64,000 nt of DNA from contig NZ_CP047901.1 in assembly GCF_009936135.1 (NCBI RefSeq), positions 631,927-695,926 on the forward strand. The letters run 5' to 3'. The DNA comes from Candidatus Chazhemtobacterium aquaticus (lineage in GTDB: Bacteria > Patescibacteriota > Microgenomatia > UBA1400 > Chazhemtobacteraceae). The notes beneath the pieces were generated by a model. The model was given only the letters and a program-made list of their open reading frames with translations, had not been told where the DNA came from and did no database searches. The stretch's first letter is position 1; each line of letters opens with the position of its first letter. Below, in pieces: positions 12,015-58,109 of this stretch. Both the position numbers and the translations under genes were made by a program.

Positions 12015-13820
12015 ATGTCAAACAATAACTCAAAATTCAATCAGCTCTCACCAGAAGATCAACATCTATATCAAATCCGTCACACCGCCGAACATGTCTT
12101 AACTCAAGCCATGATTAATCTCTATGGACCAGACAAGATCATTATGGCCATGGGTCCAGCTACAGAAGACGGTTTCTACTTCGATTTTGACTCACCTCAA
12201 GACTTTAAACTATCTGAGTCAGATTTCCCCGTCATTGAAAAGGAAATGCAACGCCTTATCGATCTTGACCTTAAGCTTGAATCAATTACCGTCTCGGCTG
12301 ATCAAGCCAGAGACCTGTTTAAAAAAAACCCCTACAAGCAAGACTGGATTACTCAAGCCGAAAGCAACCAGCTACCCATTACCCTCTACTACACTGGTAA
12401 GGACAGCGAAAATGAGTTTGTTGATCTTTGTTCCGGCCCCCATGCCGATAGTACTGGACAGATTGGAGCTTTCAAACTACTTTCGCTAGCTGGCGCCTAC
12501 TGGCATGGTGATTCCAATAACAAAATGCTAACCCGTGTTTATGGCACCGCCTTTTCATCTCAAGAAGAACTAGAACAGTTCATCGAAAAACGTCAGGAAG
12601 CTGAAAAACGAGACCATCGAAAGTTAGGGCTTAAATTTGATCTCTTCACCTTCTCCGATCTTATCGGCCCAGGTTTTCCCCTGTACACCCCCAAGGGCTG
12701 CCTACTTCGTCAACTCATTAATGGATATGTTGAACAACTCCAAACTCAACAAGACTACCAACAAGTCTGGACTCCCCAGGTAGCCAAAGCCGAGCTGTTC
12801 GAAACCTCTGGACACTACGACAAATACAAAGACGACATGTTTACCATTCACTCTCACTACAGCGACGATGAGCTGTTCTTAAAACCAATGAACTGTCCTC
12901 AACACACCCAAATCTTTGCTAGCAAACCCAGAAGCTATCGTGACCTACCCATTCGTTACACCGACTTCGCCATGCTCTATCGTGACGAAAAACCAGGAGA
13001 GCTCTCAGGGCTAGCCCGAGTTAGAGCTTTCTCCCAAGACGACTGCCATGTTTTTTGCAGCGAAGAACAGGTCGATGACGAAGTAGATGTCATGCTTTCC
13101 ATGACTAAAGAGGTCATGCGCACCTTCGGACTTAAATATCGCTACCGTCTTTCCACCAGAGACCCAAACACCCCAGAAAAATACTTAGGTGATCCCAAAA
13201 TCTGGGACAAAGTAGAAAAATGGGCCGTCAAAATCATGGAAAGAAACCACATCGAATACTACGATGGAGTAGGGGAGGCCGCCTTTTATGCTCCTAAAAT
13301 GGACTTAATGGCTACCGATGCCTTAGGTCGAGAGTGGCAACTTTCCACCGTTCAGATTGACTATGTTCAACCACAGCGTTTTGGTCTTAAATACACCGCC
13401 GCTGACGGTAGTGATCAAACCCCAATCATGGTTCATAGAGCCATCATTGGCTCCTTCGAGCGCTTCCTTATGATTCTAATCGAGCACTTCTCAGGCGCTT
13501 TCCCAGTCTGGCTCTCACCAGTTCAGGTAGCTGTCCTACCCGTTTCTGACAAGTCCAATGACTATGCCCAAGAAGTCTTCTATGAGCTTAAGAACAACGG
13601 TATAAGGGTCGAGTTTGACCAATCCGACCAATCATTGGGCAAAAAAATCAGAAATGCTGAGGATCAAAAATACCCCTACATGGTTATAGTCGGTGAAAAA
13701 GAAGCCAAAGATAGCACTATCTCTGTTCGCCAAAGAGGTGAACAAGACCTGGGTAGTATGGATCTGACTCATTTTTTGTCCCTCTTGAAGGAAAAAATTG
13801 AATCTAAAGCTTTAAATTGA
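12015..13820 (+). CDS. thrS: Threonyl-tRNA synthetase (lacks the N-terminal TGS domain; editing, catalytic and anticodon-binding domains present)
   Basis: 601 aa. The N-terminus aligns with the ThrRS editing domain (HTAEHVLTQAM), and class II motifs and the zinc site (CPQH) are present. Followed by infC-rpmI-rplT as in the classic operon. Confidence 0.9.
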   Translation: MSNNNSKFNQLSPEDQHLYQIRHTAEHVLTQAMINLYGPDKIIMAMGPATEDGFYFDFDSPQDFKLSESDFPVIEKEMQRLIDLDLKLESITVSADQARDLFKKNPYKQDWITQAESNQLPITLYYTGKDSENEFVDLCSGPHADSTGQIGAFKLLSLAGAYWHGDSNNKMLTRVYGTAFSSQEELEQFIEKRQEAEKRDHRKLGLKFDLFTFSDLIGPGFPLYTPKGCLLRQLINGYVEQLQTQQDYQQVWTPQVAKAELFETSGHYDKYKDDMFTIHSHYSDDELFLKPMNCPQHTQIFASKPRSYRDLPIRYTDFAMLYRDEKPGELSGLARVRAFSQDDCHVFCSEEQVDDEVDVMLSMTKEVMRTFGLKYRYRLSTRDPNTPEKYLGDPKIWDKVEKWAVKIMERNHIEYYDGVGEAAFYAPKMDLMATDALGREWQLSTVQIDYVQPQRFGLKYTAADGSDQTPIMVHRAIIGSFERFLMILIEHFSGAFPVWLSPVQVAVLPVSDKSNDYAQEVFYELKNNGIRVEFDQSDQSLGKKIRNAEDQKYPYMVIVGEKEAKDSTISVRQRGEQDLGSMDLTHFLSLLKEKIESKALN

Positions 13821-13859
13821 TAAAATTAAAGCCTCAAGTTACCAATCACCGTCAAAACC

Positions 13860-14399
13860 ATTAATAAACATTACTCCATAAACCAGTACATTAGAGCCGA
13901 GCAATTGCGCGTTATCAAAGATGGGGGAGAACAACTAGGTGTCATGTCCAGAGACAAGGCCCTAGCTCTCGCCAGGGAACAAGGACTGGATTTAATCCTA
14001 GTTGCCGAAAAAGCCAATCCACCAGTTGCCAAAATCATCGACTTTAGCAAGTTCAAGTACCAGCAATCAAAAAAAACCAAGTCTGGTACCACCAAAACCA
14101 AAGCCACCAATGTCAAAGAAGTCCGTTTCACCCCTTTCATGGCCGAAAACGACTTCAACACCCGTCTTGAACGAGCCAGGGAATTTCTAGCCGATGGTCA
14201 CAAAGTCAAACTCGTGGTAAAATTCACCGGGCGTCAGATCACCCGTAAAGAGTTTGGTATCTCGCAGATGGACAAGGCTGTCCAAAGCCTATCCGATATC
14301 GCCAAACTAGAACAAGATCCCAAATGGCTCGGCAAACTATACGTCGGTCAAATTAAACCAACTAAACAAATTAAGAAAGATGAACAAGACCAAAACTAA
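13860..14399 (+). CDS. infC: Translation initiation factor IF-3; probable non-AUG (ATT at 13860 or ATA at 13878) start
   Basis: The reading frame is open from 13830. The stretch INQYIRAEQLRVIKDGGEQLGVMS aligns with E. coli IF3 [24 protein letters not shown] upstream of the TTG chosen by the ORF track (13905). The only in-frame candidate starts are ATT or ATA. Confidence 0.85.
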   Translation: MNKHYSINQYIRAEQLRVIKDGGEQLGVMSRDKALALAREQGLDLILVAEKANPPVAKIIDFSKFKYQQSKKTKSGTTKTKATNVKEVRFTPFMAENDFNTRLERAREFLADGHKVKLVVKFTGRQITRKEFGISQMDKAVQSLSDIAKLEQDPKWLGKLYVGQIKPTKQIKKDEQDQN

Positions 14400-14580
14400 G
14401 ACCAGACAAATTGTCGCCAAACGGTTCAAAATTACTGCTACCGGCAAAGTTCTACGACGCACTCCCAACATGCGTCACTTACGTCGTCGTAAGAGTGCCA
14501 AACAAATTCGTCGCTACCGCAACTATGTCGAGGTAAAAGGCGTCTTTGCTAAAAAAATTAAAAGAATGTTAGGAATCTAA
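14380..14580 (+). CDS. rpmI: 50S ribosomal protein L35
   Basis: 66 aa basic protein (KTRQIVAKRFKITATGKVLRR...RHLRRRK) in the conserved position between infC and rplT. Confidence 0.85.
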   Translation: MNKTKTKTRQIVAKRFKITATGKVLRRTPNMRHLRRRKSAKQIRRYRNYVEVKGVFAKKIKRMLGI

Positions 14581-14581
14581 T

Positions 14582-14932: not shown

Positions 14933-14944
14933 CCCCTTTCTCTT

Positions 14945-14973
14945 GATTCCCCTTATTGAATAACCTATAATAC
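14945..14973 (+). promoter_or_regulatory. Consensus promoter TTGATT-N17-TATAAT
   Basis: -35 at 14945-14950, 17 nt spacer, -10 at 14968-14973, located upstream of the small gene at 15009. Confidence 0.5.
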
Positions 14974-15008
14974 TCAACACTCGTTCATTTGAGTAAGGAG
15001 ACTTACCT

Positions 15009-15227: not shown

Positions 15228-15260
15228 GCATCACCACACCGCCGAGTCTCTCAACCCAGG

Positions 15261-15292
15261 GACGTCCTTAAACAAGACGTCCCGTCTTTTTT
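15261..15292. terminator. Intrinsic terminator GGGACGTC-CTTAAACAA-GACGTCCC followed by a T-tract; probably bidirectional
   Basis: Perfect 8 bp inverted repeat followed by GTCTTTTTTC. It sits between the convergent ORFs 15009-15227 (+) and 15302-15919 (-). Confidence 0.7.
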
Positions 15293-15301
15293 CTACTTTA
15301 T

Positions 15302-17865: not shown

Positions 17866-18870
17866 ATGGACGATCTCGAAATCATCAAAAAACAAGCTAC
17901 TCAGCAAATCCAGTCTGCCAAGGATCTTGAAGCCTTAGACAAACTTCAAACTCAATATCTTGGCCGCAAAGGTTTAGTCAATCAATACTTAAGCTCGCTT
18001 CCTAAAGAAGCCCTAAAAAGCCAGGGTCGTCTCATCAACCAAACCAAACAATACATTGACCAGCTTATTGCCAAACGCCAAAAATCTCTTCAGCAGGTCC
18101 AACAAGAGATCGATGTCACCATACCAGGCATTCTTCCACCCATCGGCCACCTTCACTTAATTACCCAAACCATTAAAGAAATCGAGGATATCTTCACCAA
18201 ACTAGGCTTTGTCAGGCGTCGTTACCCAGAAGTAGAGACTGACTGGTACTACGCCGAAGGCCTAAACATCCCCAAAGACCACCCCGCCCGAGATGACCAA
18301 GAAACCTTCTATATCAATCCAGAAGTTGTTCTAACCGCCCATACCAGCAATGGCCAGTTACGAGAGATGGAGTTATTAAAAAAACCTCCCATCAAAATGA
18401 TTAACATTAGTAAGACCTATAGACGTCAGGCCAGTAATACCCATAGTCCCATGTTCCACCAGTTCGAGGGTTTAGTCGTAGACAAAGATATAAACATCAC
18501 TCACCTTATCGGTGTCAGCAACTTCTTTGTTCAGTCATACTTTGGCTCTGACCGTCAAGTCAGACTTCGTCCTCACCACTTTCAGTTCACCGAGCCCAGC
18601 TTCGAAGTCGACATCAACTGCCACCTTTGCAAGGGTAGGGGAGAGTTAAATGGAAAAAGCTGCCCCGTCTGTAAAGCTGGTTGGCTAGAGCTTGGCGGCG
18701 CCGGCATGGTCCACCCTCAGGTCTTAAAAAACGGTGGTATCAATCCCGATCGATTTACTGGCTTCGCTTTCGGTTGGGGGATAGAACGTCTCATCATGAT
18801 GAAACATAACGTTACCAACAACCTACGAGATCTCTATACCAGCGATCTTCGCTTTCTCAATCAGTCATAA
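17866..18870 (+). CDS. pheS: Phenylalanyl-tRNA synthetase alpha subunit
   Basis: 334 aa with class II motifs (...FRPHHFQFTEPSFEVDI..., GAGMVHPQVL), immediately followed by pheT. Confidence 0.9.
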   Translation: MDDLEIIKKQATQQIQSAKDLEALDKLQTQYLGRKGLVNQYLSSLPKEALKSQGRLINQTKQYIDQLIAKRQKSLQQVQQEIDVTIPGILPPIGHLHLITQTIKEIEDIFTKLGFVRRRYPEVETDWYYAEGLNIPKDHPARDDQETFYINPEVVLTAHTSNGQLREMELLKKPPIKMINISKTYRRQASNTHSPMFHQFEGLVVDKDINITHLIGVSNFFVQSYFGSDRQVRLRPHHFQFTEPSFEVDINCHLCKGRGELNGKSCPVCKAGWLELGGAGMVHPQVLKNGGINPDRFTGFAFGWGIERLIMMKHNVTNNLRDLYTSDLRFLNQS

Positions 18871-18877: not shown

Positions 18878-20860
18878 ATGGATATTAAGTTACCCCATTC
18901 ACTACTTAAAGAATTCCTAGATACCTCAGCTAAACCTGAACAAATAGCCAAGTCTCTCTCTTTATGTGGTCCCACCGTTGATCGAATCACTTCTTACAAG
19001 AACGATTACCTTTACCATATCGAGGTCATTACCAATCGCATTGACTCAGCCTCAGCCTTTGGCATAGCCAGAGAAGCAGCCACCATCCTACCTCAATTCA
19101 AATACAAGGCCAAGATTAAAAATGATCCATACCAACTAAATCTAAAACAACTAGGTGATCTACCCAAAAACTCACCACTTAATCTACAAATTCTAGACAA
19201 CTCTCTCATACCCCGCTTTACGGCTATTACTCTTACCAATACTCAAGTCAAACCCTCACCCAAACCGGTTCAAGATTGGCTCAATCTTTCAGGACTACGC
19301 CCCTTAAACAATGTTATCGACATCACCAATGAACTAACCCTTAAGTACGGTCAGCCTGTCCACGCTTTTGATTTAGACAAAATAGCCAACCAACAACTTA
19401 TATTGCGAGAGAGTAAGAAAGGGGAGTCTATCACGACTCTGGATGGTCGAGTTCACCATCTACAAGGTGGTGACATCGTCATCCAAGACGGCTCCGGTCG
19501 CCTAATTGACCTTTGTGGCATCATGGGTGGCCAACTCTCCGCCATTGACTCAAATACTAAAAATGTTCTTCTCTTTGTCCAAACTTACGAACCCAAACAC
19601 ATCAGAAAAACCTCTCTCTACACACAAGAGAGAACTCTAGCTGCCCAGATTTTTGAAAAAAAACCTGACCCCGAACTAGTTCTTCCCACTCTTATCGCCG
19701 GTGTTAAACTTCTAGAACAACGAGCCAACGCCACTATTAGTAGCAATCTCATCGACCTATACCCCAATCCAACTAAAACCAAAACCATCAATCTTGACCT
19801 AAACTGGCTTAACCAATTTGCTGGCATCAATCTAAAACCAACTCAAGTCAGCAGTATTCTAAAAAAACTTGGTTTCACCTCCAAATCAATCACTTCTCAA
19901 GTACTTCGCGTTACAGTTCCCAGCTGGCGCCACCATGATATTAATCTCACCCAAGACTTAGCCGAAGAGATTATCCGCATCCACGGCTATTTCCGCCTAC
20001 CATCTAATTTACCTTCCACCACCATCCCCCACACTCAAACCGACCCACTTCTTAAACATGAGTATCAAGCTCGTAGCTACTTAAGCAACCTAGGCTTCAC
20101 TGAAATCTACAACCTCTCTCTAGTCAGCCAAGACCTTTTCCGTCAAACCAACCATAAACTTGAACCAAAACTAAAGCTTTCCAATCCACTATCCGGAGAG
20201 TTTGAGTACCTACGCACATCTCTTATCCCCTCACTTCTCTCCAATCTGGATGCAAATCGAGGTAAAGTCGCTCCACCCCTACGCCTATTTGAACTAGCCC
20301 ACACCTACCACTCAACCAAATCCACCCTACCAGATGAAACCAGCACCTTAAGTTTTATCACCTATGGTTTAGATTTCTTTACCACCAAAGGCTATCTTGA
20401 AGCATTAGCCAAACACCTCCACCTTAACCTAAAATTCAAACCCCTGGCCAAAAAGACTCCACCCTTTATAACTAAACACTCAGCCTCAGTCTATTACCAT
20501 AACCACCATCTTGGTACCCTTGGCATCATCTCGCCCGAAGTTACTTCCAGGTTTAATCTAAACCAAACAGTCGTTTGTGCTGATCTTAACTTCGCCAAGT
20601 TAAGCCTCCAAATCAACCCTATTCTAAACTTCAAACCTATCCCGCAATATCCATCCATCTATGAAGACATAACCCTTACATCAACTAAGCCTGTAGCCGA
20701 TCTTATCACTCAGCTGGAAAATGCCCACCCCCTTATTGTCTCAGTTGAGTATCTTACCTCACATCAACACAACCACACCTTCCGCCTTGAATTCAATGAT
20801 CCTCAGGGTAATCTCACCCAAGCTAAAGTCACCCAAATCAAAAACAATCTTAAATCTTAA
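18878..20860 (+). CDS. pheT: Phenylalanyl-tRNA synthetase beta subunit (short form, 660 aa)
   Basis: Sits downstream of pheS. B3/B4 and catalytic-like domain order; shorter than the roughly 800 aa canonical form. Confidence 0.8.
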   Translation: MDIKLPHSLLKEFLDTSAKPEQIAKSLSLCGPTVDRITSYKNDYLYHIEVITNRIDSASAFGIAREAATILPQFKYKAKIKNDPYQLNLKQLGDLPKNSPLNLQILDNSLIPRFTAITLTNTQVKPSPKPVQDWLNLSGLRPLNNVIDITNELTLKYGQPVHAFDLDKIANQQLILRESKKGESITTLDGRVHHLQGGDIVIQDGSGRLIDLCGIMGGQLSAIDSNTKNVLLFVQTYEPKHIRKTSLYTQERTLAAQIFEKKPDPELVLPTLIAGVKLLEQRANATISSNLIDLYPNPTKTKTINLDLNWLNQFAGINLKPTQVSSILKKLGFTSKSITSQVLRVTVPSWRHHDINLTQDLAEEIIRIHGYFRLPSNLPSTTIPHTQTDPLLKHEYQARSYLSNLGFTEIYNLSLVSQDLFRQTNHKLEPKLKLSNPLSGEFEYLRTSLIPSLLSNLDANRGKVAPPLRLFELAHTYHSTKSTLPDETSTLSFITYGLDFFTTKGYLEALAKHLHLNLKFKPLAKKTPPFITKHSASVYYHNHHLGTLGIISPEVTSRFNLNQTVVCADLNFAKLSLQINPILNFKPIPQYPSIYEDITLTSTKPVADLITQLENAHPLIVSVEYLTSHQHNHTFRLEFNDPQGNLTQAKVTQIKNNLKS

Positions 20861-23647: not shown

Positions 23648-25657
23648 ATGCGGCTTAATCACTCTGTTGCCAATCTGCCCGGAGTCGGTCCAGCTTATCA
23701 AAAACGACTCCAAAAACTTAATATCAACACTATTTCTGACCTCATCAACCACTTCCCTTCCCGTTATCTTGATTACTCACACACCACCCCCATCAACAAA
23801 CTCGAACCAGACCAAGAAGTCTGCCTTAAAGCCACCCTTGTCTCACTAACTTCTGTTAGACTTCCTAATCGAAAAACACTCCAAAAAGCCACTGTTACTG
23901 ACTCAACTGGATCGCTTCAACTAACCTGGTTTAACCAACCATATCTTACTAACTCTCTTATTCCCAAACAGCAATACTATTTCACCGGCCAAGTTGATCA
24001 ATTCAGAAATCAACTAATCCTCAACTCACCAGACTTCGAACCAATTAAAAAGAAACAACTCCATACCAACCGCATCATTCCTCTCTACCCACTTACCGCC
24101 GGTATCTCCCATAAATGGCTCCGTCACAAAATCAGTCTAGTCCTCTCATCGCTCACCATCAAAGAGATTTTTCCCTCTTCTCTTAAATCAAGGCTACCCA
24201 TCGACCTTAACTCCGCCTACCATCAAGTCCACTTTCCAGACACTCAAAAGCAACTTGAGTCGGCTCAAAAACGCCTAAGCCTTAATGATCTAATCGGTAT
24301 CTATCTTAAATCCGCTCTCACTCAACTAGACTGGCAGCAACGATCTGCCACTCCCATAACCACCACCCCATCACTTCATAACCAGCTACTCAAAAAACTA
24401 GATTTCGATCTAACTCCAGACCAACAACAAGCCATCAACGATGTATTCACAGACCTTAAACAAACCATCCCCATGAACCGGCTTCTCCAAGGCGATGTTG
24501 GCTCAGGCAAAACCATTGTCGCCGTCTCGGCTGCTCTACAAGTAGTGAAACAAGGCTTTCAAACCCTTGTTCTTGCCCCCACTCAAGTCCTAGCAGAACA
24601 ACACTACCAATCCTTCTCCCAACTGCTTAAACCCTTTTCTATCAAGCCACTACTTGTCACTGGACAATCTAAAAAGAAGTTACCCACCGCCCCCCTGGTC
24701 ATCGGCACACACGCCTTATTACACCGACCAGAGCTTATCCAAAATCAAAAACTTGGTCTAGTTGTCATCGACGAACAACATCGCTTTGGTGTTCTTCAAC
24801 GCTCATCCTTCTTTAACTCTGTCTCGACACCCCACCTTCTTACCATGAGCGCTACTCCAATTCCACGAACTATCGCTCTATCTCTATATGGCCACCTTAC
24901 AATCAGCAACATCAACACTCTTCCCAAGAATCGCAAACCCATCAAAACCAAGGTTGTCTCAGAGATCAAACGGCCACAAGCATATCAATGGATCAAGCAG
25001 CAAATTACTACCAGGAAAACCCAAGCCTTCTTCATTTGTCCCCTAATTGAGGACTCATCCAGCGAAAGTCTTAAAACGGTTAAGGCAGCCACCAGTGAGT
25101 ATCAACGCCTCCAACAGGTCTTTCCCGATCTCAAAATTGCCCTTCTACATGGAAAAATGAAGCCCGAACAGAAAAACACGATCCTTAAAGAGTTTAAATC
25201 TAAAAAGTACGACATTCTAGTCAGCACCCCTGTCATCGAGGTTGGCATAGACATACCCAACGCCAATATTATGGTGATCGAAGGGGCTCAACGCTTCGGA
25301 TTATCTCAACTCCACCAACTCAGAGGTCGAGTCGGTAGGGGAGAGCACCAATCTTTTTGCCTTCTCTTTAGCTCTGAAATATCAACCACCTCGCTTCACC
25401 GTCTAAAACTTATGGAAAAGTACCAACGTGGTCTAACTCTAGCCAAACTTGACCTCCAATTAAGGGGGGCAGGGGAGATCTTTGGTACCGCCCAAAGCGG
25501 ACACCTAGACACTCAATTCCCTCAGTTTTGGAACGCAGATCTTAACAAGCAAGCTAAGCAAATTGCCCAGCAACTAGTTTTATTACCCAAACCACAACCT
25601 CAACAACTTCTTGTCTCTCTAAACCCGAATCTTGCAAAAACAACCTCACCCAACTAA
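23648..25657 (+). CDS. recG: ATP-dependent DNA helicase RecG
   Basis: 669 aa with a wedge/OB N-region and SF2 helicase motifs (GDVGSGKT, DEQHRFG, QLRGRVGRG). Confidence 0.85.
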   Translation: MRLNHSVANLPGVGPAYQKRLQKLNINTISDLINHFPSRYLDYSHTTPINKLEPDQEVCLKATLVSLTSVRLPNRKTLQKATVTDSTGSLQLTWFNQPYLTNSLIPKQQYYFTGQVDQFRNQLILNSPDFEPIKKKQLHTNRIIPLYPLTAGISHKWLRHKISLVLSSLTIKEIFPSSLKSRLPIDLNSAYHQVHFPDTQKQLESAQKRLSLNDLIGIYLKSALTQLDWQQRSATPITTTPSLHNQLLKKLDFDLTPDQQQAINDVFTDLKQTIPMNRLLQGDVGSGKTIVAVSAALQVVKQGFQTLVLAPTQVLAEQHYQSFSQLLKPFSIKPLLVTGQSKKKLPTAPLVIGTHALLHRPELIQNQKLGLVVIDEQHRFGVLQRSSFFNSVSTPHLLTMSATPIPRTIALSLYGHLTISNINTLPKNRKPIKTKVVSEIKRPQAYQWIKQQITTRKTQAFFICPLIEDSSSESLKTVKAATSEYQRLQQVFPDLKIALLHGKMKPEQKNTILKEFKSKKYDILVSTPVIEVGIDIPNANIMVIEGAQRFGLSQLHQLRGRVGRGEHQSFCLLFSSEISTTSLHRLKLMEKYQRGLTLAKLDLQLRGAGEIFGTAQSGHLDTQFPQFWNADLNKQAKQIAQQLVLLPKPQPQQLLVSLNPNLAKTTSPN

Positions 25658-30208: not shown

Positions 30209-31057
30209 TTAATCAGTCTGAGTTAACTGACCACCCGAATACAAGGCTGCATCAAACACAACTGGTAACACCGGTAACGTTCTTATCGCCTCAACTTTTC
30301 GAACCACACCATCCGCCGTTGACCCCGTAGAGACAATCCTATATGCCTGATCAGGTAACAGCGACCCAACAGGCAAGGGAGACACTCCAATTTTTCCTCG
30401 GTTATACAACATTCTCACTCTAACAATCACATCCTCAGCCACAATTGGTACATTAGCTCTAGCTCCAAAACTAACACCCATAAAACTTCCTGGATTCACC
30501 GTTGCTGTATCAAAATTGTTCGAAGCTCTCCTGGTTGCATCTGGATCGAAAGCATAATGCACTGTTCGATAATCACTATCAGAAAACTGCTGATATTTAA
30601 TTACCTCCACTGCTCCAGTAGGGGACTCATTCGACTCACCCCGGTCTGCCCAATATATATCCAAACTTGTAGGTGGACTTGCCGAACCTGTCACATTAAC
30701 CTCAACCACCTCTCCAGTTTCGATTGCTACATTTGTCACCTGACCATCCGCTCCCTCACTTTGGGCATCAGTTTCAAAACTTGCCTCATTCACCGTCCCC
30801 TCAAAAGATCCACCGATACTAATATTCCTCAATGCTTCCTCAATACCCGCCTCTGCAGCCTTCAAGGCCTGAGATGAACTCTGTTCAACTCCTGCCAATC
30901 TCAAATCAGAAACTGATCGACTTACTACTGACAACACAATCACCCCCATCACCACCAATACCAATACCACTATCAACGCCACCTGACCTTGCTGATCTCG
31001 CACACCATTCTTCATAAACCCATTCTGACCAATTCTTCTTTTAGAGTCAAACATCAA
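30209..31057 (-). CDS. PilX-like pilus assembly/minor pilin protein
   Basis: The N-terminus QQGQVALIVVLVLVVMGVIVL resembles the PilX_N hydrophobic segment, and the rest is a beta-rich body. It lies within the pilin block. Confidence 0.5.
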   Translation of the reverse strand: MMFDSKRRIGQNGFMKNGVRDQQGQVALIVVLVLVVMGVIVLSVVSRSVSDLRLAGVEQSSSQALKAAEAGIEEALRNISIGGSFEGTVNEASFETDAQSEGADGQVTNVAIETGEVVEVNVTGSASPPTSLDIYWADRGESNESPTGAVEVIKYQQFSDSDYRTVHYAFDPDATRRASNNFDTATVNPGSFMGVSFGARANVPIVAEDVIVRVRMLYNRGKIGVSPLPVGSLLPDQAYRIVSTGSTADGVVRKVEAIRTLPVLPVVFDAALYSGGQLTQTD

Positions 31058-32454: not shown

Positions 32455-32834
32455 GGATTATTCAAGCAATATGGACTGGTCTCACCACTTCCCTCCATAG
32501 TTGTAGCACACAAGGTGTACTGGGTAGGGGACACGTATGTATAACTATATCCAAAACCCGTCTGACCATCCTTTGGATCAGTTGGCACCGGGTCAAGATA
32601 AGTTTGTCCATCACAAACAATTGCGGTACCCAAAGAAGCTGGATACGCCCCACTTTCAGCTCGACATATCTCCAAAGCTGCCCTTATCTGTTCCAAGTCA
32701 CCTTTACGTTTACTGTCTCTGGCATTTGCATTTGTTGATGAGAAACTAGCCATCGCAATGCCTGAGATAACTGCAATAATCGTAATAACCACCAACAACT
32801 CAACAAAAGTAAAACCTGCTTCCTTTATTCTCAT
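32451..32834 (-). CDS. Type IV pilin / GspG-like pseudopilin (paralog 1 of 5 in tandem)
   Basis: EAG/FTFVELLVVITIIAVISGIAMASF plus the conserved RDSKRKGDLEQIRAALE block. Confidence 0.8.
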   Translation of the reverse strand: MRIKEAGFTFVELLVVITIIAVISGIAMASFSSTNANARDSKRKGDLEQIRAALEICRAESGAYPASLGTAIVCDGQTYLDPVPTDPKDGQTGFGYSYTYVSPTQYTLCATTMEGSGETSPYCLNNP

Positions 32835-35866: not shown

Positions 35867-36430
35867 TTACTTAGCACACCAGTAACAAGCGGCAGTTCCT
35901 GGACCAATAGTTGCCTTGTTCTCAGTGGTGCAGGTCGTAGCAGATAAATCAGTCTGACCATCCTGACTGTATCGAGTACCTGCATCAGCAAACACGGACT
36001 TGCTAGTTGGCTCAAAACAGATCGACAGAGACACTGCGGAAGGCGAGTTTATATATATGTTACCAGCCGTGCCACTTCCCACTGCAGACATAAAGTCAGG
36101 CTTAAGCTCTCCATCAGTAATCAGCGGATCAATACACCCAGCTGTGTTTAAAGCACTCAAAGCCAGAGGCCCACCAGAGAAATCAGCCACACAAGCATCA
36201 TCATTCCAGGGCAAGTCACCATGAGTAGCGTAGTACCTGATAAATCCGTTGTGCAACTCAACTACTTGGTTACGAGTATTGCTGTCTCGACCTTTCTTAA
36301 GCTGTTCAAATGGGTCTACTGCCGCCAACAAACCAGCTGCCAAGATTCCCAAAACTCCGATAACAATAAGTAGCTCAATTAATGTAAAACCTTGGGGTTG
36401 GTTGTGTCTTATCATGATTTTCATTTTCAA
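35867..36430 (-). CDS. Type IV pilin (candidate major pilin, adjacent to pilC and pilD)
   Basis: QG/FTLIELLIVIGVLGILAAGLLAAV prepilin N-terminus; 187 aa with C-terminal Cys pairs. Confidence 0.75.
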   Translation of the reverse strand: MKMKIMIRHNQPQGFTLIELLIVIGVLGILAAGLLAAVDPFEQLKKGRDSNTRNQVVELHNGFIRYYATHGDLPWNDDACVADFSGGPLALSALNTAGCIDPLITDGELKPDFMSAVGSGTAGNIYINSPSAVSLSICFEPTSKSVFADAGTRYSQDGQTDLSATTCTTENKATIGPGTAACYWCAK

Positions 36431-47124: not shown

Positions 47125-48087
47125 ATGATTACCATCAAAACTCTTAAAGCCGGAACCTATATTACCGACCATCCATTCGCCATCACTAATGTCACTCAAA
47201 AAACCACCAAAAACAACACCCCATATCTTCAAGTCACCCTAAGCGACCCAACTGGTCAACTAGAAGCCAAAGTCTGGAACGATGCCTTTGATGATGTTAC
47301 TCTTGAAGTTGGCAAAATTGCCCTTGTCACCGGTCGAGTAGGGGAGTACCAGGGCAAAATCGACCTCAATATCCAAAAAGCCAGCATCGACTCTTCATTA
47401 AACTTCACCGACCATCTCTCCACCATTCCCACCATGATCTTCGACATCGAAACAGTCGGCAAGCCTTTTGATGAACTAGAGGCCTGGGACCAAGACTATT
47501 TTCTAAACCGCATCGAGGGCCAAACTGATGAGGAGGAAGCCAAAACCAAAACCGGCCTGTATTCCCTCTATGGGTTTGTTCAGGCTATTGGCCTGATCAA
47601 TCAAGAGGGTAGGGGAGAGGTCCTTGCCTTAACTGACCAAAAACTCAAAAACTCCAATCCCAGCTTTACCTACTCAACCTTTGCCAATGAAAAAGACTTA
47701 CTTACCAAATTCTGGGGCCTTACCCAAGAATATCAGCGCTTCGTCACCTACAACGGTAGGGGATTCGACTGGCCTTTTTTAATCATTCGCTCAGGTATTA
47801 ACCGCGTCAAAGTCCCCATGGAAATCGACCACTACAATAAGCATAAATTCATTGATTTAGCTGACCATCTTCGCCAAGGAGGTAGACAATTTAAACTAGA
47901 AGCCTTTTGCCGAGCCTTTGGCATCACTAATCCTAAGGAAAAAGGTGTCTCGGGTTTACTGGTCAGCCAACTCTATTACGAAAAAAACCATCAAGCCATC
48001 GCTGACTATGTTTCCCGCGACGTTATCTCCACCAAAGAACTCTACGATATCTGGCATCAATATCTCTCCGGTCATCTAAATTTTTAA
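47125..48087 (+). CDS. OB-fold plus RNase H-like (DEDD-type) 3'-5' exonuclease fusion protein, hypothetical
   Basis: N-terminal roughly 90 aa OB-fold-like segment (...QLEAKVWNDAFDDVTLEVGKIALVTGRVGEYQGKIDL), then FDIETVG (Exo I), YNGRGFDWPFL (Exo II) and a later H...D (Exo III-like). Confidence 0.5.
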   Translation: MITIKTLKAGTYITDHPFAITNVTQKTTKNNTPYLQVTLSDPTGQLEAKVWNDAFDDVTLEVGKIALVTGRVGEYQGKIDLNIQKASIDSSLNFTDHLSTIPTMIFDIETVGKPFDELEAWDQDYFLNRIEGQTDEEEAKTKTGLYSLYGFVQAIGLINQEGRGEVLALTDQKLKNSNPSFTYSTFANEKDLLTKFWGLTQEYQRFVTYNGRGFDWPFLIIRSGINRVKVPMEIDHYNKHKFIDLADHLRQGGRQFKLEAFCRAFGITNPKEKGVSGLLVSQLYYEKNHQAIADYVSRDVISTKELYDIWHQYLSGHLNF

Positions 48088-49439: not shown

Positions 49440-50393
49440 CTACTTCAAAAAGCGTTCGTGCACCTTGCGCAGTTGTGGATTAGTCACATGGGTATATACC
49501 TGAGTCGTGCTTACATTCTTGTGTCCCAACATCTCCTGAACCGAACGCAAATCTGCTCCGTTTTGCAGCAAGGTTGTCGCAAAAGAGTGCCTAACCACAT
49601 GAGGGCTTACTTTAATCGGTAACTTTGCCGACCTTCGATACTTCTCAACAATTCTCTGTATAGTCCTAACCGATAACCTCATCTGTTCACCAGCAGTCGC
49701 TGGATCCGCCTTAGTTCCCGAATACCGAATCCACACCGGCCGCCAATGATCGTCTCTAGCCACTAAAAATCTCTCTAACCACTTAGCTGCTCGTTCACTT
49801 AAAAAAACCACTCTTACTCTTCTTCCTTTACCCACCACCCCAAACTCTCGACTCTTAATATCAATATCCTCTCTATTTAATTTAGCCAGTTCACTAACCC
49901 GCAAACCAGTTGAAAACAACACCTCCAGTATCGCCTTATCTCGCAATCCTTCAGGCTCTGATGTCAGCGGCTGGTCAAGCAGTCTCTCAATCTGTTCACG
50001 GCTCAAAAACCTAATTCTTCGACCCTCAGCCTTAGGCAGCTCTACCTTCTCAGGAGACAAGCTCTTAATCCCTTTCTTACTTAAGTACTTTAAAAAAGCT
50101 CGTAGAGCAATTACGTGATAACTCTGCGTTGTTCTTGACAAGGTCTGGCCCTTCTCATCCTCATAACGACTCAACCACAATCGATAGCTTCTAACCATCT
50201 CAGCCGTTAAGCGATTAACATATTCCTGCTCGTATTTTTTTTCAAACCACTTCCTAAATCGAGTCAAGTAAAACCTATAGTTTCTTAACGTATATTTTGA
50301 GTAATTCCGTTCAACCTCAAGGTGGGCGATAAACCGATTAATTAATTTTTTTAATTCAAAATCTTCTTTTGTTTTCTTTGTCTGTTTCATCAC
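49440..50393 (-). CDS. xerC: Tyrosine recombinase, XerC/XerD family
   Basis: The C-terminal catalytic region HVVRHSFATTLLQNGADLRSVQEMLGHKNVSTTQVYTHV is the R-H-R-Y tyrosine recombinase signature, with an N-terminal core-binding domain. Confidence 0.85.
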   Translation of the reverse strand: MMKQTKKTKEDFELKKLINRFIAHLEVERNYSKYTLRNYRFYLTRFRKWFEKKYEQEYVNRLTAEMVRSYRLWLSRYEDEKGQTLSRTTQSYHVIALRAFLKYLSKKGIKSLSPEKVELPKAEGRRIRFLSREQIERLLDQPLTSEPEGLRDKAILEVLFSTGLRVSELAKLNREDIDIKSREFGVVGKGRRVRVVFLSERAAKWLERFLVARDDHWRPVWIRYSGTKADPATAGEQMRLSVRTIQRIVEKYRRSAKLPIKVSPHVVRHSFATTLLQNGADLRSVQEMLGHKNVSTTQVYTHVTNPQLRKVHERFLK

Positions 50394-50504
50394 TAGGGTA
50401 GGGGAGACCCTTGATAATTTCTAGCACACCTGTCGCCACAAATCAACAATGTGCGACACTATGCTTGGTTACAAACAGCAGCTTGAGGCATATAATCTTT
50501 ATTT

Positions 50505-51371: not shown

Positions 51372-51470
51372 TTTTTTATTTTCTAAGTCGTCAAAATTCT
51401 CCCTATCTTCAATAGGGGAGAGGGGAGTCTTCTGCCCATATTCCCTTTAAATATCCAATAAAGACTCAAA

Positions 51471-51498
51471 GGGTTATATATCCCATAATATATAAACG
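51471..51498. other. Candidate dif-like Xer recombination site: GGGTTATATAT-CCCATA-ATATATAAACG, an 11-6-11 imperfect palindrome
   Basis: The arms match 9/11 as inverted repeats around a 6 bp spacer. It is 1 kb from xerC, inside a gene-free AT-rich segment where the polarised G-rich motif flips strand. Confidence 0.3.
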
Positions 51499-51963
51499 AT
51501 ATTTTTCGCCTATGTGGTTAAAGAAACAAGAAAATTAAAAACTAACTAATCATTTATCCACCATAAATTACATAAACAATCCTTACTTACCTAGTTTGCC
51601 TATCTATATCATTAATATCTAAGCGTTCACATTTCCAAATCATATCTATAGTCGAATAGGCTAGTCATGAAATTAAGAAGGATATGATCAAGACAACAGC
51701 CAACACTCCTTATCATCCGCACACAAACGACCTTAAAGCCACCACTACACTCGACAACCACACTCTGGCAATAAACAACACAACTCGTACAGTCCTAGCC
51801 TCAAAAAGCATGGCCTACATGCCTACGACCGCTTCTAATGCCTTCAGAAGGCTTTCCAGACACATGCAAGCTATCTCATTACCTCGAGAATACATTGATA
51901 TATAGGCATTTTAGGCAAAATGGCTTAATCAGATAATATCCAATTACTGATGTAAGAAAACTC

Positions 51964-51989
51964 AAAAATCCTTTCGGGTTTTTATTCAA
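51964..51989. repeat. Direct repeat copy A: AAAAATCCTTTCGGGTTTTTATTCAA, a hairpin-forming element
   Basis: A near-identical copy (23/25 nt) lies 98 nt downstream; AAAAAUCC/GGGUUUUU can form a hairpin. Confidence 0.6.
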
Positions 51990-52061
51990 AAAGGCGAACC
52001 AGGCACAAAGCCATAACTAGTGGCACAAAAACCGGGGAGTATAGTCATGCTTGTTAAGACC

Positions 52062-52086
52062 GAAAATCTTTCGGGTTTTTATTCAA
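52062..52086. repeat. Direct repeat copy B: GAAAATCTTTCGGGTTTTTATTCAA, with terminator-like CCGAAA/TTTCGG hairpin plus T5
   Basis: See copy A. The CCGAAA-ATC-TTTCGG stem is followed by GTTTTT. Confidence 0.6.
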
Positions 52087-52574
52087 TCCATCGTTGGGGA
52101 CTACTTGGCACTTCTCCACCACCTTTGCACCACACCATGTCGTAAAAGTAACATTGTACGACACAATCTCCTAGTCCGAAACGACTCTCGAACAAGTAGG
52201 GAAGTGAAGATGTATGTCCATCAAAAATATCCACGACACAAACCAACAACTAAATATTTATCTAACAAAACAAGGCTAATCTCCCCCCAGATGACCTAAG
52301 GCTCTTACCTTCTATATCCCGTGGAAATCGTGAAAAAATACCTATAGTTTTCCACATATCGATCAAACTGTATCAATTAAGGCTAAATTATCTACCCTTA
52401 GACTCCTCTCTCCCCCTCAAGATCTAGTGCCATAAATTTTTTGTATTGCTAGCCTCAAATCATGGCTAAATCAACAAGACCGGACAAGCCTGCTGTACTG
52501 TAATGTTATAGGATAATTACAATTCCCGCATAGACTATAGGTCTTCCCTACTCCATACCCGCGTCCTAAAAAAA

Positions 52575-53396: not shown

Positions 53397-53410
53397 TACT
53401 ACCCTCTAGC

Positions 53411-53935
53411 TTAAGCCAAATTACTCCAGACCTCAACCACATCATCATGTTCATCCAAAGTCTCAATCAGTCTCTCAGCTGCATCCTTATCCTTACCCTC
53501 AAGCGTTATCTTAGGTGTTGGCTCAATTGTTTTTAAATAAGCAACCGACCCAGGCGCACCCAAACTTCCCCCATTCTTATCAAATATATTTTTAATCTCT
53601 GCTGATGTCCTGTTCCGATTATCAGTTAATACCTTCACAATCACTCCTACACCACCCACTCCATAACCCTCATACACAATCTCCTCCATCTTCCCCTCAC
53701 TCCCCTTTCCCAATCCCCGATCAATCGCTCTTCTAATGTTGTCATTGGGCATATTAGCTTCCCTAGCTTTATCAATTGCCAATCGCAGCGTCGGATTAAT
53801 CGCAGGATCACCACTGTTTCCTTCCTTTACCGCAATCGTGATCATTCGAGCAACTTTTGTGAACGTTTTACCTCTCTTGGCATCAACAACTGCCTTCTTG
53901 TGTTTAATAGTTGACCATTTACTGTGTCCTGACAT
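53411..53935 (-). CDS. YebC/PmpR-family protein (short form)
   Basis: [39 protein letters not shown] is the hallmark YebC N-terminus. 174 aa rather than the usual roughly 240. Confidence 0.8.
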
Positions 53936-54716
53936 GCCCAGTATTATAGCACCTCAACAATTAACCCTTGACGTCATCTCCACAATCATTTACATTTTCC
54001 TTCAGCTTATGAATCCTAACCTGCCAGACCTTATCAACAAATCTATCAAGGCAGCCCTTTCTCAATCCTGGACCGAAGCCATCGATCTCAATCTTCACAT
54101 TCTCCAGCACAAACCCAACGACATCCCCACCCTTAATCGTTTAGCCAAAGCCTACGAAAAATCATATGAGCCAGACAAGGCTAAAAAAACCTACCAAAAA
54201 GTCCTAAAACTTGACCGCTTTAACAACATTGCCATCTCCAACCTCTCTCGTATTAAAAAGTCTCCACCTCGTACTCCATCATCAGACATCACCAACTCAC
54301 ATCCTCAAAAAACATTCAGCTTCATTGAGGAACCAGGTAAAACGAAAACTGCTTCATTAACCAAACTAGCCCCAAAGCAAGTCATCAACTCTCTTGATAC
54401 TTCACAGGTAGTCATTTTAAAGCCTTACAGGCGCCGTATCAGTGTTTTCACTACGCAAGGCACCTGCATCGGCTCACTTCCTGACGATCTATCCCGCTAT
54501 TTACTCCGCCTTATCAAACTCGGCAACAAATACGAAGCTGCCATCAGAAATATCTCCCGCTCTCAAATAGAAATCTTTATCAGAGAAATCCATAAATCAA
54601 AACGTCTCAAAGGTCTTCCCTCATTTCCTTTAAAAGACACCAAAAACTATTTTGCTCTTCTCCCCACTGACCCCATCGCCGAAGTTCCTCTCGAACTACC
54701 CGAGTCAGAGACTTAA
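53934..54716 (+). CDS. TPR-like repeat protein, hypothetical (start uncertain: 53934 or 54012)
   Basis: TPR-like helices ([41 protein letters not shown]). The ORF-track start at 53736 would overlap yebC in antisense, so I place the start later. Confidence 0.45.
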
Positions 54717-54743
54717 AAAAACCTCCCCGTTTCATCACTATCC

Positions 54744-55640
54744 CTATCTGTACCTTTCCGCCCACTCCTTTCCTATTACCACCCTCACATCACCACCCAC
54801 CCTATTCCCAGTTCTCTCTCCACAACCCATCTGTCTTTCAAGCCAATCAATACTCACAGACTCACTCTCACCCCCGCTCTCGTACCAACACAAACCATCC
54901 TCAACCTCAGCCGTATCTACCAACACCACCACTCCTCCAGCCGACTTAATCATCTGCTCCACCAATCTAGCCATACCCGGCTCACCGCTTGCGTTTATCA
55001 CCTCAAAACTTAAACTTTCAGCCAGTATCGCCGGACTTGCCCATAACCCTTCCATCCATGCCCATAATCCTCCTTTATCTACCCTTACCTCAGTCTGGCC
55101 ATCTGGAGTTACCTTCATACTTGTCAATCTCGACGGGATCCGCAAACTCTCCCTTTGATCATCTCTTAACTCGTTCCATGCCTTAACTGTACTAAAACTA
55201 TCCCACTTGCTCTCCGCCATTCCAGACCAAACTCTACTCCATTCAAAAGCTGCATCACCTCGCCAAACCGCATCAATCTTAACCCCCATCCAACTCTCTA
55301 AACTTCGCCTTACCATCTCCTCCGGTCTTCCCTCACTCTCACCAAATCGCCATAAAGATTTTACCTTTAACTCACCCTGGGTACCCACCAAAGGAACCAT
55401 CACCTCGCCAGGAATGACCACCTCAACCGCTCTCTTAGCCCTTGAATTAACCCCTACCACCCTTATCCACTCATCCTCAACTACTGCAGTAATATAAAAA
55501 CGATTCTCACCCCACTTTGACCTACCCTTCTCAAACACCAACCACCCAAACACTAGTATCGACAATATCAATACGGTAGCCATCAACCACCACCCACTCC
55601 TTCCTGAATTACTCTTTCCCCTACCATAATCACGCCTCAT
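54744..55640 (-). CDS. Membrane-anchored protein with C-terminal LytR_C-like domain, hypothetical
   Basis: N-terminal transmembrane helix (WWLMATVLILSILVFGWLVF). The C-terminal stretch FEVINASGEPGMARLVEQMIKSAGGVVVLVDTA resembles the LytR/CpsA/Psr C-terminal domain. The protein is Trp-rich. Confidence 0.45.
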   Translation of the reverse strand: MRRDYGRGKSNSGRSGWWLMATVLILSILVFGWLVFEKGRSKWGENRFYITAVVEDEWIRVVGVNSRAKRAVEVVIPGEVMVPLVGTQGELKVKSLWRFGESEGRPEEMVRRSLESWMGVKIDAVWRGDAAFEWSRVWSGMAESKWDSFSTVKAWNELRDDQRESLRIPSRLTSMKVTPDGQTEVRVDKGGLWAWMEGLWASPAILAESLSFEVINASGEPGMARLVEQMIKSAGGVVVLVDTAEVEDGLCWYESGGESESVSIDWLERQMGCGERTGNRVGGDVRVVIGKEWAERYR

Positions 55641-55672
55641 CCTTTCACTCTACCAGAACCTACACCCCTCTA

Positions 55673-56392: not shown

Positions 56393-56801
56393 TAACCTGC
56401 TTATTTCTAAATCGCCAATAATCCATCAGCATTATCCCAAGCCCAGCGCTAATATACAAATCAGCCAGGTTAATCCACAAACCCACAAACTCCAAGTTTA
56501 TCCAATCAATCACCCGTCCATAAGCAAAACGATCAATCAGGTTAGCCACTCCACCCAAAATTATCACTCTCTCCCCTACCCGACTCTCATCTTTAAGTCT
56601 CAGCCACCACCAACATAAACAGACAAATACCAATATCCACCACCAATCAGTCCCAAACTGCCACCCAAAAGACACCCCCGTATTTTCAACATACTCTCCC
56701 CTACTCCAAAACCAACGCTTGCTTAAAAAATCAACCAGCAACAATACCAAACCAAAACTATTTAAGCTTAGCAGACTCCATTTTTTTCTCACACTCAACA
56801 C
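56373..56801 (-). CDS. lspA: Lipoprotein signal peptidase II
   Basis: Motifs NTGVSFG, GGVANLIDR and VIDWI with four transmembrane segments, adjacent to lgt. Confidence 0.8.
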   Translation of the reverse strand: MLSVRKKWSLLSLNSFGLVLLLVDFLSKRWFWSRGEYVENTGVSFGWQFGTDWWWILVFVCLCWWWLRLKDESRVGERVIILGGVANLIDRFAYGRVIDWINLEFVGLWINLADLYISAGLGIMLMDYWRFRNKQVNENKEA

Positions 56802-57162
56802 AATACTCAGCTGTTGGATTAATAGCTAACCTATCAGTATCAATAAGCTTGCCACATCTAGCACAAGTACCATAACTACCCACCTTAATCCTTGTTAAAG
56901 CCTTCCTGATATTAATCAAGCCCTTATCCACCTCCAGCTTAATTGCCTGGACTCGCTCATGCCCCATCTGTTCAGCTACCTCAGTATCAACTGCTGCATT
57001 GTTATCAACCCTATCTGTATCAGAAAACGGATCCTCCTTTGTCAACGATTTCTTCTGCCTCTTTAATCTCTTTTCCTCATTAAGAAGATAGTCCTTAATT
57101 GGTTTTAACACCCACGAAGGAAACCTAACCACTTGTCTAACCTTGCTTTTAATTTCAGCCAT
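56758..57162 (-). CDS. DksA/TraR-family C4 zinc-finger protein
   Basis: The C-terminal CARCGKLIDTDRLAINPTAEYCVEC is the DksA/TraR C4 finger; 134 aa. Confidence 0.7.
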   Translation of the reverse strand: MAEIKSKVRQVVRFPSWVLKPIKDYLLNEEKRLKRQKKSLTKEDPFSDTDRVDNNAAVDTEVAEQMGHERVQAIKLEVDKGLINIRKALTRIKVGSYGTCARCGKLIDTDRLAINPTAEYCVECEKKMESAKLK

Positions 57163-57184
57163 TATCCTAGTTTACACCACCCTC

Positions 57185-58033
57185 CTACTTTTTAAAAGTT
57201 TCTTGCCTACCCTTTCTTCGCTTTAACCTTGATATATCCTCCCAAAATCTTCTTCCTGATCTTTGATATATTCCTACCACTCCAATGCCTATTAATAATA
57301 ACCCCATGACCATATCTAAGGCCACTCCAAACACCTGGGTCTGCTCACCCCTAAACAAACTCGCCATAGAAAAACTCAAACCCAAAAACACCAACCAACC
57401 AAACCATAGAAATCCAGTTCTGGCCGCAACCCTTCCCGCTCGATACCATGACAAAGTCCTGTACTCTCCCTCCATCCTCCACCACCACAAGAAAAAGACG
57501 CTGCTAATAACTAACATGATCAGTTGAACCGGTACCAATTTCATTTCATAACCCGGAAAATTAACACCCCACCAACCCTGTGTCTCAGCCCCTAAATAAC
57601 TTCCGTTCAAAAATGCCGCTAAAAAACCCCACGGCAAAGCTGCCGCCACACCCAAACTTACATAATCAAGCCACAAAAAAACATCCTCTTCACTGTCTCT
57701 CAATCTCCACCACAGATACCCTACCCCCGCAATCAACCCACCCCACCAACACAACCCCACATAATTACTCAGCCACAACCACTTAAGTAAGCTAAAACCA
57801 AACTCACCAAAATGAGTCAGGATGTACCCAACTCTAGCCCCCACCAAACCCCAAAACAAACTCATAAATGCACTGTCCAGAAAAAACTTATCCTCAACAT
57901 GAGACTCCTTCGCCTTTTTCCACGCCACGAACAGACCCATCAGTACACCAATCACTAGCATCAATCCCATACTAGATATCTCAACTCTTCCTACTTTAAG
58001 TATCACTGGTAGCATGTTCCTATCATAAAACAC
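57185..58033 (-). CDS. lgt: Prolipoprotein diacylglyceryl transferase
   Basis: 282 aa polytopic membrane protein. The N-terminal MLPVILKVGRVEISSMGLMLVIGVLMG and the GARVGYIL region resemble the Lgt signature (G..R.G). Gene order lgt-dksA-like-lspA. Confidence 0.65.
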   Translation of the reverse strand: MFYDRNMLPVILKVGRVEISSMGLMLVIGVLMGLFVAWKKAKESHVEDKFFLDSAFMSLFWGLVGARVGYILTHFGEFGFSLLKWLWLSNYVGLCWWGGLIAGVGYLWWRLRDSEEDVFLWLDYVSLGVAAALPWGFLAAFLNGSYLGAETQGWWGVNFPGYEMKLVPVQLIMLVISSVFFLWWWRMEGEYRTLSWYRAGRVAARTGFLWFGWLVFLGLSFSMASLFRGEQTQVFGVALDMVMGLLLIGIGVVGIYQRSGRRFWEDISRLKRRKGRQETFKK

Positions 58034-58109
58034 CCAGCCAATAAAACCAAATCACTCCCCTACTCTATTTCATCACTATTTTGCTATACTCGAAAAAGAC
58101 CCTCAAGTT

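Follow-up and report, generated by a model that had tools for sequence, protein, structure and literature searches.

A probable KOPS-type polar word converging on a dif-like site in a Microgenomates chromosome with one-signed GC skew

A polar word and its proposed role

We analysed a 64-kb stretch (the window) of the chromosome of Candidatus Chazhemtobacterium aquaticus Ch65 (CP047901, closed, 801,504 bp) and found that a short G-rich word, (G)TAGGGGAG, changes strand at a dif-like site of 28 bp, so that from both sides it reads towards this site. The word is probably a dif-directed polar chromosome word of the type of the FtsK-orienting polar sequences (KOPS) or architecture-imparting sequences (AIMS), and its reader would be a protein of the FtsK/SpoIIIE family. 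Since the inversion is not accompanied by a switch in GC skew, our data indicate that the word of this lineage tracks dif and not the strand asymmetry in base composition, which is presumably linked to replication. What is new here is a lineage-specific KOPS-like word, together with a new dif/Xer pair, on a chromosome whose skew has one sign; a literature search found no described guiding motif for Patescibacteria/Microgenomates.

In the mechanism that we propose, selection would keep the word on whichever strand reads 5′ to 3′ towards the dif-like site at 52137-52164 (window coordinates throughout). A DNA translocase of the FtsK/SpoIIIE family would recognize it through the gamma winged-helix domain and would thus be guided to dif on both chromosome arms; there Xer would resolve chromosome dimers during division. 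The features by which KOPS are known are found here: the word is short and over-represented, is polar with respect to dif on both arms and inverts at dif. The site likewise has the architecture of a dif (about 28 bp, 11+6+11) and is associated with a Xer-family recombinase. An earlier reading made from the letters alone (the sequence-only reading) had proposed that a KOPS-type word converges on dif beside xer; this proposal holds, with the switch now placed on a conserved 28-bp site.

Over-representation of the word

To the right of the window the sequence was extended to 72.8 kb with a contig of a near-identical sibling strain (L087), which lengthens the right arm and brings the DNA covered to ~73 kb, or ~9% of the chromosome. 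The top strand of the window contains 19,033 C and 9,363 G. Because of this lopsided composition, expectations for words were computed for each strand separately.

The best core of the word is GTAGGGGA (clade-wide core N-AGGGGAG), which is the most over-represented of all 8-mers in the window; 7-mers and 9-mers derived from it lead their own lists. On the top strand it occurs 10 times (at 13269, 18635, 25335, 30618, 32524, 35571, 47338, 47609, 47756 and 50398), where strand-specific Markov models of orders 0-3 predict 0.07-0.14 copies (P ~5e-16), and on the bottom strand four times (55617, 56572, 56697 and 58056). The overall density of the word is about 1 per 4.6 kb. The 12-mer GGTAGGGGAGAG, for which 0.04 copies are expected, occurs exactly four times, at 18634, 25334 and 47608 on the top strand and at 56569 on the bottom strand, just as the sequence-only reading had reported. 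The close variants listed there fared less uniformly. Those at 13266, 25464, 50396, 51412, 56694 and 58054 are real, while two coordinates had to be mended (GGTAGGGGA starts at 47755, not 47766, and GGTAGGGGAAAG at 55614, not 55609); the variants at 548 (GTAGGGGGGAAC) and 49250 (GGGGAGGTC) are present but weak, and the list had overlooked four top-strand copies of GTAGGGGA, at 30618, 32524, 35571 and 47338.

The strand-specific Markov expectations, taken together with the counts in relatives given below, rule out a chance origin of the word. A repeat element or mobile DNA is also ruled out: the flanks of the copies are unrelated to each other, so that we are dealing with a short word. Its supposed fit to the E. 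coli KOPS consensus GGGNAGGG proved superficial and coincidental. Some copies happen to contain GGGTAGGG, but GGGNAGGG itself is neither enriched in the window (11 copies against 12.8 expected) nor polar, with wrong-way copies on the left arm at 17114 and 23755.

Strand switch at the dif-like site

All 10 top-strand copies of GTAGGGGA lie left of 50.4 kb and all four bottom-strand copies right of 55.6 kb. When the core AGGGGAG is counted, the ratio of top- to bottom-strand copies in the window is 10:0 left and 0:5 right of the dif-like site. Taken alone, the bottom-strand copies are moderately significant, as 1-3 are expected window-wide on the G-rich strand (local P ~3e-4, post hoc). The sibling contig adds three more bottom-strand copies, at 64992, 68102 and 72040, and up to 72.8 kb adds none on the top strand; the copy at 64992 lies opposite a plus-strand gene, in antisense orientation. 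For the outermost copy the distance from dif is 39 kb. What makes the strand flip convincing is the agreement between the copies in the sibling contig, the left-arm copies that are antisense to genes, and the comparative loci. The earlier claim that copies occupy the top strand on the left and the bottom strand on the right, whatever the orientation of genes, is thus borne out by the window, by the sibling contig and by the clade counts.

Individual copies are arranged as follows. On the left arm, all on the top strand, we find GTAGGGGA(G) at 13269-13276 (sense in thrS), GGTAGGGGAGAG at 18634-18645, an AGGGGAG core at 19420-19426, GGTAGGGGAGAG at 25334-25345 (sense in recG) and another AGGGGAG core, within GGCAGGGGAGAT, at 25471-25477. 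They are followed by three copies antisense to minus-strand genes, GTAGGGGA at 30618-30625, GGTAGGGGA at 32523-32531 and GTAGGGGA at 35571-35578, the last of them opposite a pilD-like gene. Closer to the site lie GTAGGGGAG at 47338-47346 (in an exonuclease gene), GGTAGGGGAGAG at 47608-47619, GGTAGGGGA at 47755-47763 and GGTAGGGGAGA at 50397-50407, which is intergenic and directly upstream of the start of xer. The final left-arm copies are two overlapping cores in TAGGGGAGAGGGGAG at 51413-51427, 0.7 kb from dif. On the right arm, all on the bottom strand, a motif-like GGGGAGAG at 52408-52415 comes first, ~250 bp from dif; it is followed by an AGGGGAG core at 53700-53706, GGTAGGGGAAAG at 55614-55625, GGTAGGGGAGAG at 56569-56580 and AGTAGGGGAGAG at 56694-56705 (both in lspA), AGTAGGGGAGTG at 58053-58064 (upstream of lgt) and an AGGGGAG core at 63185-63191, inside the tRNA-His gene (63125-63201).

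Polarity in related loci

Scanning metagenomes around the Xer protein gave 80 loci, in which the gene is flanked by up to 10 kb in either direction. All 7-mers and 8-mers were scored for convergent polarity over 75 xer-centred loci, and AGGGGAG ranked first among the 7-mers (114 convergent copies to 13), with support from each side separately; in the same unbiased scan the ratio was 37:1 for GTAGGGGA and 45:4 for TAGGGGAG. Other high-ranking words are A-rich and polar on one side only, and were set aside as gene-orientation effects. When the loci are anchored on the dif site and the window is excluded, the two strands carry AGGGGAG in a ratio of 100:1 upstream and 7:119 downstream, so that overall 96.5% of copies are convergent (219:8, in 55 related metagenome loci). 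The commonest member of the word family in the clade is TAGGGGAG (90:1), followed by AAGGGGAG (60:4), CAGGGGAG (36:2) and GAGGGGAG (33:1).

The switch falls on the 28-bp site even in loci where this site is 2-8 kb away from xer (L097, L099, L139 and L152), and in four others (L100, L102, L103 and L104) inverted copies hug dif, lying ~330 bp away on one flank and ~110 bp away on the opposite flank. Two unplaced loci of relatives, reached through ThrRS orthologues on near-complete contigs of sibling assemblies, have a different gene neighbourhood, and the word keeps to one strand in them as well. The gene order pil-holB-gyrB-gyrA...xer-gap-DUF5656-yebC is kept in metagenome-assembled genomes of Microgenomates/Woesebacteria and out to candidate division WWE3. 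Left of xer, these loci carry the word only on the gyrA-sense strand; right of xer, WWE3 has it on the opposite strand.

Four of the loci (L007, L008, L009 and L018) have GTAGGGGA at the identical position 12351, close to the 3′ terminus of gyrA; Ch65 lacks a copy there. Single copies of the word can thus be conserved within sub-clades and turn over between them.

The dif-like site and its recombinase

The site of Ch65, GTGTCGTACAA-TGTTAC-TTTTACGACAT (11+6+11, minus strand), is the only one of its kind in the window at up to 8 mismatches. Its clade-wide form, ATGTCGCACAA-TAATAC-TTTTGCGACGT, consists of two 11-bp imperfect inverted arms separated by a 6-bp spacer, and came to light when the DNA upstream of xer was searched for conserved words. 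The element occurs in 60 loci, 0.4-8.5 kb upstream of xer and always in the same orientation relative to this gene. The arm cores are conserved at 96-100%, the centre of the spacer at 64-66%. The part shared with canonical dif sequences is the inner CGCA.AA element. For canonical dif consensus sequences themselves, any match has 10 or more mismatches. An AT-rich palindrome at 51469-51498 was rejected as dif because it is not conserved (3 marginal matches in 55 loci).

The window has a single gene for a Xer-family tyrosine recombinase (49440-50393, minus strand; Pfam Phage_integrase with a SAM-like N-terminus). By NCBIfam profiles its product obtains 247.7 bits as XerC (cut-off 335), 240.1 as XerD (329.6) and 210.4 as XerA (220); judged by sequence, the protein belongs to the Xer family and scores under the curated cut-offs for XerC, XerD and XerA alike. 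The dif-like site lies in a gene-free gap of 1.2 kb (51372-52574) that also holds DnaA-box-like elements, and genes from both sides converge on the site, as had been noted earlier. The interval of 51.4-55.6 kb, previously proposed to contain the replication terminus, does contain the site; a terminus with an inflection of GC skew is not supported.

No Rfam family of structured RNA was found in the gap; five tRNAs lie elsewhere in the window. Left of dif the gap carries two copies, 97 bp apart, of a 23-nt hairpin followed by a T-run, at 51967-51989 (AATCCTTTCGGGTTTTTATTCAA) and 52064-52086 (AAATCTTTCGGGTTTTTATTCAA). They match no Rfam family and look like terminators or the ends of small transcripts.

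Strand composition does not switch at the site

In every 2-kb segment of the window the GC skew is negative (–0.13 to –0.55). We also considered the skew at third codon positions (GC3 skew), with the top strand as reference. Left of the dif-like site it is –0.57 in plus-strand and –0.58 in minus-strand genes; right of the site the corresponding values are –0.71 and –0.68. Intergenic GC skew is –0.30 on either side. Over the 72.8 kb the sign of the GC3 skew is identical in 71 of 71 genes of any orientation (mean –0.59, range –0.11 to –0.82), which rules out a concealed short segment of reversed skew near dif. Of 35 loci from relatives, 34 keep the sign of the orientation-corrected GC3 skew from one side of dif to the other. 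As a positive control, the same method picks up a sign change across dnaA/oriC in Firmicute loci. The V-shaped inflection of GC skew anticipated at the site by the sequence-only reading, and by implication an oriC opposite to it, therefore finds no support, as both GC3 and intergenic skew are one-signed across the site. That reading had named a skew switch mapping elsewhere as the observation that would count against it, and on this point the interpretation of the site as an ordinary terminus fails, or is not demonstrable from skew.

These observations agree with the whole chromosome, round which the cumulative GC skew drops linearly, one strand having 14.97% G and 29.83% C (PMC7143001). The cumulative skew is likewise linear in genomes of Collierbacteria and Beckwithbacteria, and from skew alone Kadnikov et al. 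proposed either that the origin lies close to the terminus or that replication is unidirectional (PMC7143001). In that paper neither dif nor ori nor any polar motif is located, and dnaA, FtsK and Xer are mentioned neither there nor in its supplements; a literature search found no follow-up to it treating dnaA, FtsK, Xer or dif. An AT skew matching the GC skew is absent in the window, nor has one of the kind expected from simple deamination been described for Ch65 (PMC7143001); its absence argues against simple C-to-T deamination as the cause of the skew.

A pilin-like (N_methyl) gene at 35867-36430 (minus strand) is the sole gene with a GC3 skew near zero (–0.11, the mean being –0.59), which suggests that the pilin was acquired recently or turns over rapidly.

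Alternative explanations of the polarity

If the skew marks the direction of the fork, a Chi-like word should not invert at the site and a dif-directed word should. The argument for a KOPS-type over a Chi-type word fails only if the skew has a non-replicative cause, and this defines the main rival explanation: the word would be replication-directed (a Chi-like hotspot or a generic leading-strand word), the site would mark an ordinary bidirectional terminus, and the skew would have arisen by some process other than replication. We consider this unlikely, though several observations are in its favour. Chi and KOPS both flip at the terminus in ordinary bacteria, so the flip alone cannot tell them apart; the density of the word resembles that of E. 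coli Chi; genes, too, converge on the site. Moreover, the AT skew that C-to-T deamination should leave is missing, which makes the cause of the skew unusual (this window; PMC7143001). What speaks against this explanation is that the GC3 skew keeps its sign at dif in nearly all loci of relatives, by a method that detects origin flips in Firmicutes. The process that it calls for is also hard to name: to our knowledge, apart from replication asymmetry there is no mechanism for a chromosome-wide, transcription-independent G/C bias on one strand. The bias of E. coli Chi is roughly 75%, and the 96.5% polarity found here, with inverted copies tightly flanking dif, is nearer to KOPS. Finally, the switch occurs exactly on the 28-bp site wherever this is placed relative to xer, which points to dif as the reference point.

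Two further explanations were given even less weight. The strand pattern could in principle be a by-product of gene orientation or of codon or amino-acid usage (for example, Gly-Arg-Gly-Glu), given that genes on either side are directed at the gap. In favour of this, most copies in the window are sense within genes, and a common reading frame is used by three of the four exact 12-mers. Reading frames are of little help here: one of the three sense frames holds a TAG stop, so neither this sharing nor the opposite argument of the sequence-only reading, that use of two frames implies a signal at the DNA level, counts for much. The copies at 30618, 32524, 35571 and 64992 are antisense to their genes. 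Within the clade, polarity is equal in genes of either strand and in intergenic DNA (12:0, 4:40, 36:0 and 2:29, where the first ratio refers to minus-strand genes upstream of dif and the second to plus-strand genes downstream). Polarity thus follows the side of dif and not the gene strand, and we rule out a gene-orientation artefact, to which we assign hardly any probability at all. It is very improbable, too, that the word is of a DNA-uptake type, or another abundant protein-binding word, with an accidental strand distribution. A short, strongly over-represented word would suit such a role, pilB, pilT, pilC and pilD genes are found in the window, and the lineage has type IV pilus and competence genes; yet convergence at 219:8 across 55 independent loci excludes accident, and neither a polarity of ~96% nor a switch at dif would be expected of uptake sequences.

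The KOPS-type interpretation is itself not free of difficulties, and the following points weigh against it. A dif normally lies at a switch of GC skew, and the site described here coincides with none. The site shares only 13-18 of its 28 positions with dif of E. coli, B. subtilis and H. influenzae, and the word does not fit the E. coli KOPS consensus as such. On the right arm the copies occupy the G-rich strand, in which the background of chance occurrences is greatest. Of the 801-kb chromosome our direct view takes in ~73 kb, and in relatives it takes in ±10 kb. Lastly, tblastn probes detected no ftsK in the window or in the clade loci, so that we infer the reader protein. In support of such a reader, other Patescibacteria commonly have FtsK proteins that carry the gamma domain (PF09397), according to a database search; such a search seeded with FtsK of Jorgensenbacteria returned Parcubacteria-type proteins only.

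A DnaA-box-like module beside dif

Next to dif, the gap contains a conserved module at 52320-52378. It begins with a near-box ATTTCCACG (52320-52328, minus strand), continues with two relaxed DnaA boxes, TTTTTCACG at 52329-52337 (minus strand) and TTTTCCACA at 52348-52356, and ends with a conserved block ATATCGATCAAACTGTATCAAT. These are two of the three relaxed DnaA boxes in the whole window. Across 846 kb of clade loci there are 52 perfect DnaA boxes (~6.5 expected), and 46 of them lie within 1.25 kb of dif; a typical locus has one perfect box in fixed orientation, 130-365 bp from dif. Relaxed boxes are ~20-fold enriched at 100-400 bp from dif (–400 to –100 in the clade loci). In the alignment of clade loci the module, which lies on the DUF5656 side, consists in order of the polar word, 2-3 (TAT)CCTATAAT repeats, two TTTTCACR elements, TGTGGATAAC and a TGATATAGTT block, with dif 150-250 bp further on. 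The closest relatives have, between dif and xer, an AT-rich stretch and another box. The module stands in a non-promoter position.

From its sequence, the module is possibly an oriC or another DnaA-binding region. A DnaA-box-like module by dif is what would be expected if the origin lay beside dif, as a one-directional model requires. We therefore tentatively entertain, without favouring it, the idea that origin and dif share the same ~1-kb intergenic gap and that Ch65 and its relatives are replicated essentially in one direction. Several facts speak against an origin at this place: no clade locus has at least three exact relaxed DnaA boxes, no dnaA gene was found near dif in the window or the clade loci, and DnaA boxes have other roles as well.

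Were the origin indeed beside dif and replication one-directional, the words would be on the leading strand in one half of the circle and on the lagging strand in the other, and the polarity of segregation would be naturally uncoupled from that of replication. Such an arrangement would also imply a fork barrier, or one-sided loading of the helicase, directly beside dif. In most bacteria rRNA operons run co-directionally with replication. The rRNA genes of Ch65 and the majority of its genes (449 vs 389) are on the C-rich strand (PMC7143001). If its rRNA operons are co-directional with replication, it is the C-rich strand that would be leading, contrary to the usual rule.

Comparison with known systems and significance

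KOPS and the SpoIIIE recognition sequences (SRS) are G/A-rich words of 7-8 letters, exemplified by GGGNAGGG in E. coli and GAGAAGGG in B. subtilis. With E. coli KOPS, read by the gamma domain of FtsK, the Ch65 word shares that it is a G-rich 8-mer, over-represented, more than 90% polar towards dif and inverted there. It differs in its sequence, (G)TAGGGGAG, in that its reader is proposed by analogy, and in that along one arm it occupies the G-poor strand, because the GC skew does not invert at dif. An atypical KOPS, GAAGAAG, has reportedly been described in a study of L. lactis (PMC3384302). It and the SRS of B. subtilis, read by SpoIIIE, are likewise lineage-specific purine-rich guides, the word co-evolving with its translocase; unlike them, the Ch65 word has the core AGGGGAG and belongs to the Patescibacteria/Microgenomates lineage. 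AIMS are leading-strand-biased on both replichores, whereas the Ch65 word takes its bias from the position of dif, with no coupling to the compositional strand. Like the Ch65 word, AIMS are reported to be skewed octamers whose orientation mirrors chromosome architecture (PMC5993296). Chi (RecBCD/AddAB) is comparable as an over-represented, polar, G-rich short word with ~1 copy per 5 kb, but it follows replication direction, whereas the Ch65 word changes strand at a point where the skew keeps its sign and is far more strictly polar.

XerH/difH and the archaeal XerA/dif are single-recombinase systems with dif near the gene. In XerS/difSL, too, one xer gene is reportedly accompanied by a nearby dif (PMC2731167). 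With such systems the Ch65 clade shares, in the loci covered, one xer gene and a near-palindromic 28-bp site (11+6+11) in fixed orientation, 0.4-8.5 kb upstream of the gene. It differs from them in that its protein is, by score, equally XerC, XerD and XerA, and in that the sequence of the site is new.

In textbook bacteria the direction of replication, GC skew, gene orientation, KOPS polarity and dif all refer to the same two points, at which they invert together, and it is therefore hard to tell which constraint shapes which feature. The present case indicates that a KOPS-like word is selected relative to dif and is not a passive leading-strand feature. It also makes the hypothesis of one-directional replication directly testable on genomes and metagenomes that are already available. 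A further use of the word and of the dif consensus could be to orient and check assemblies of Microgenomates, where skew plots are uninformative.

Other features of the window

The window carries housekeeping genes of a bacterial kind, namely clpB/C, polX, thrS, pheT, a class A penicillin-binding protein gene, recG, pilBTCD and holB, and further gyrB, gyrA, the Xer-type recombinase gene, lspA, lgt, efp and dnaB. Its GyrA protein is identical to QHO63675.1 of Ca. Chazhemtobacterium aquaticus. The YebC/TACO1 homologue at 53411-53935 (minus strand) is only 174 aa long, and of the 160 profile positions of its second domain just the first 52 are matched. Next to the gene come ~0.8 kb (53936-54743) without a long minus-strand open reading frame. 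Relatives of this protein align across ~177 aa only, and the short YebC may be a feature of the clade.

Another word, TAACCGA (often CTAACCGA), has 16 top-strand copies in the window, where 3-4 are expected, and one on the bottom strand. The top-strand copies are at 2595, 10710, 22024, 28507, 28668, 28986, 31338 and 42205, and then at 48210, 48687, 48846, 49667, 62440, 62965, 63271 and 63482. It was set aside as a second skewed word, since it does not change strand at dif and since relatives show no clear conservation or polarity of it. One of its copies (10709) is inside a tRNA-Val gene.

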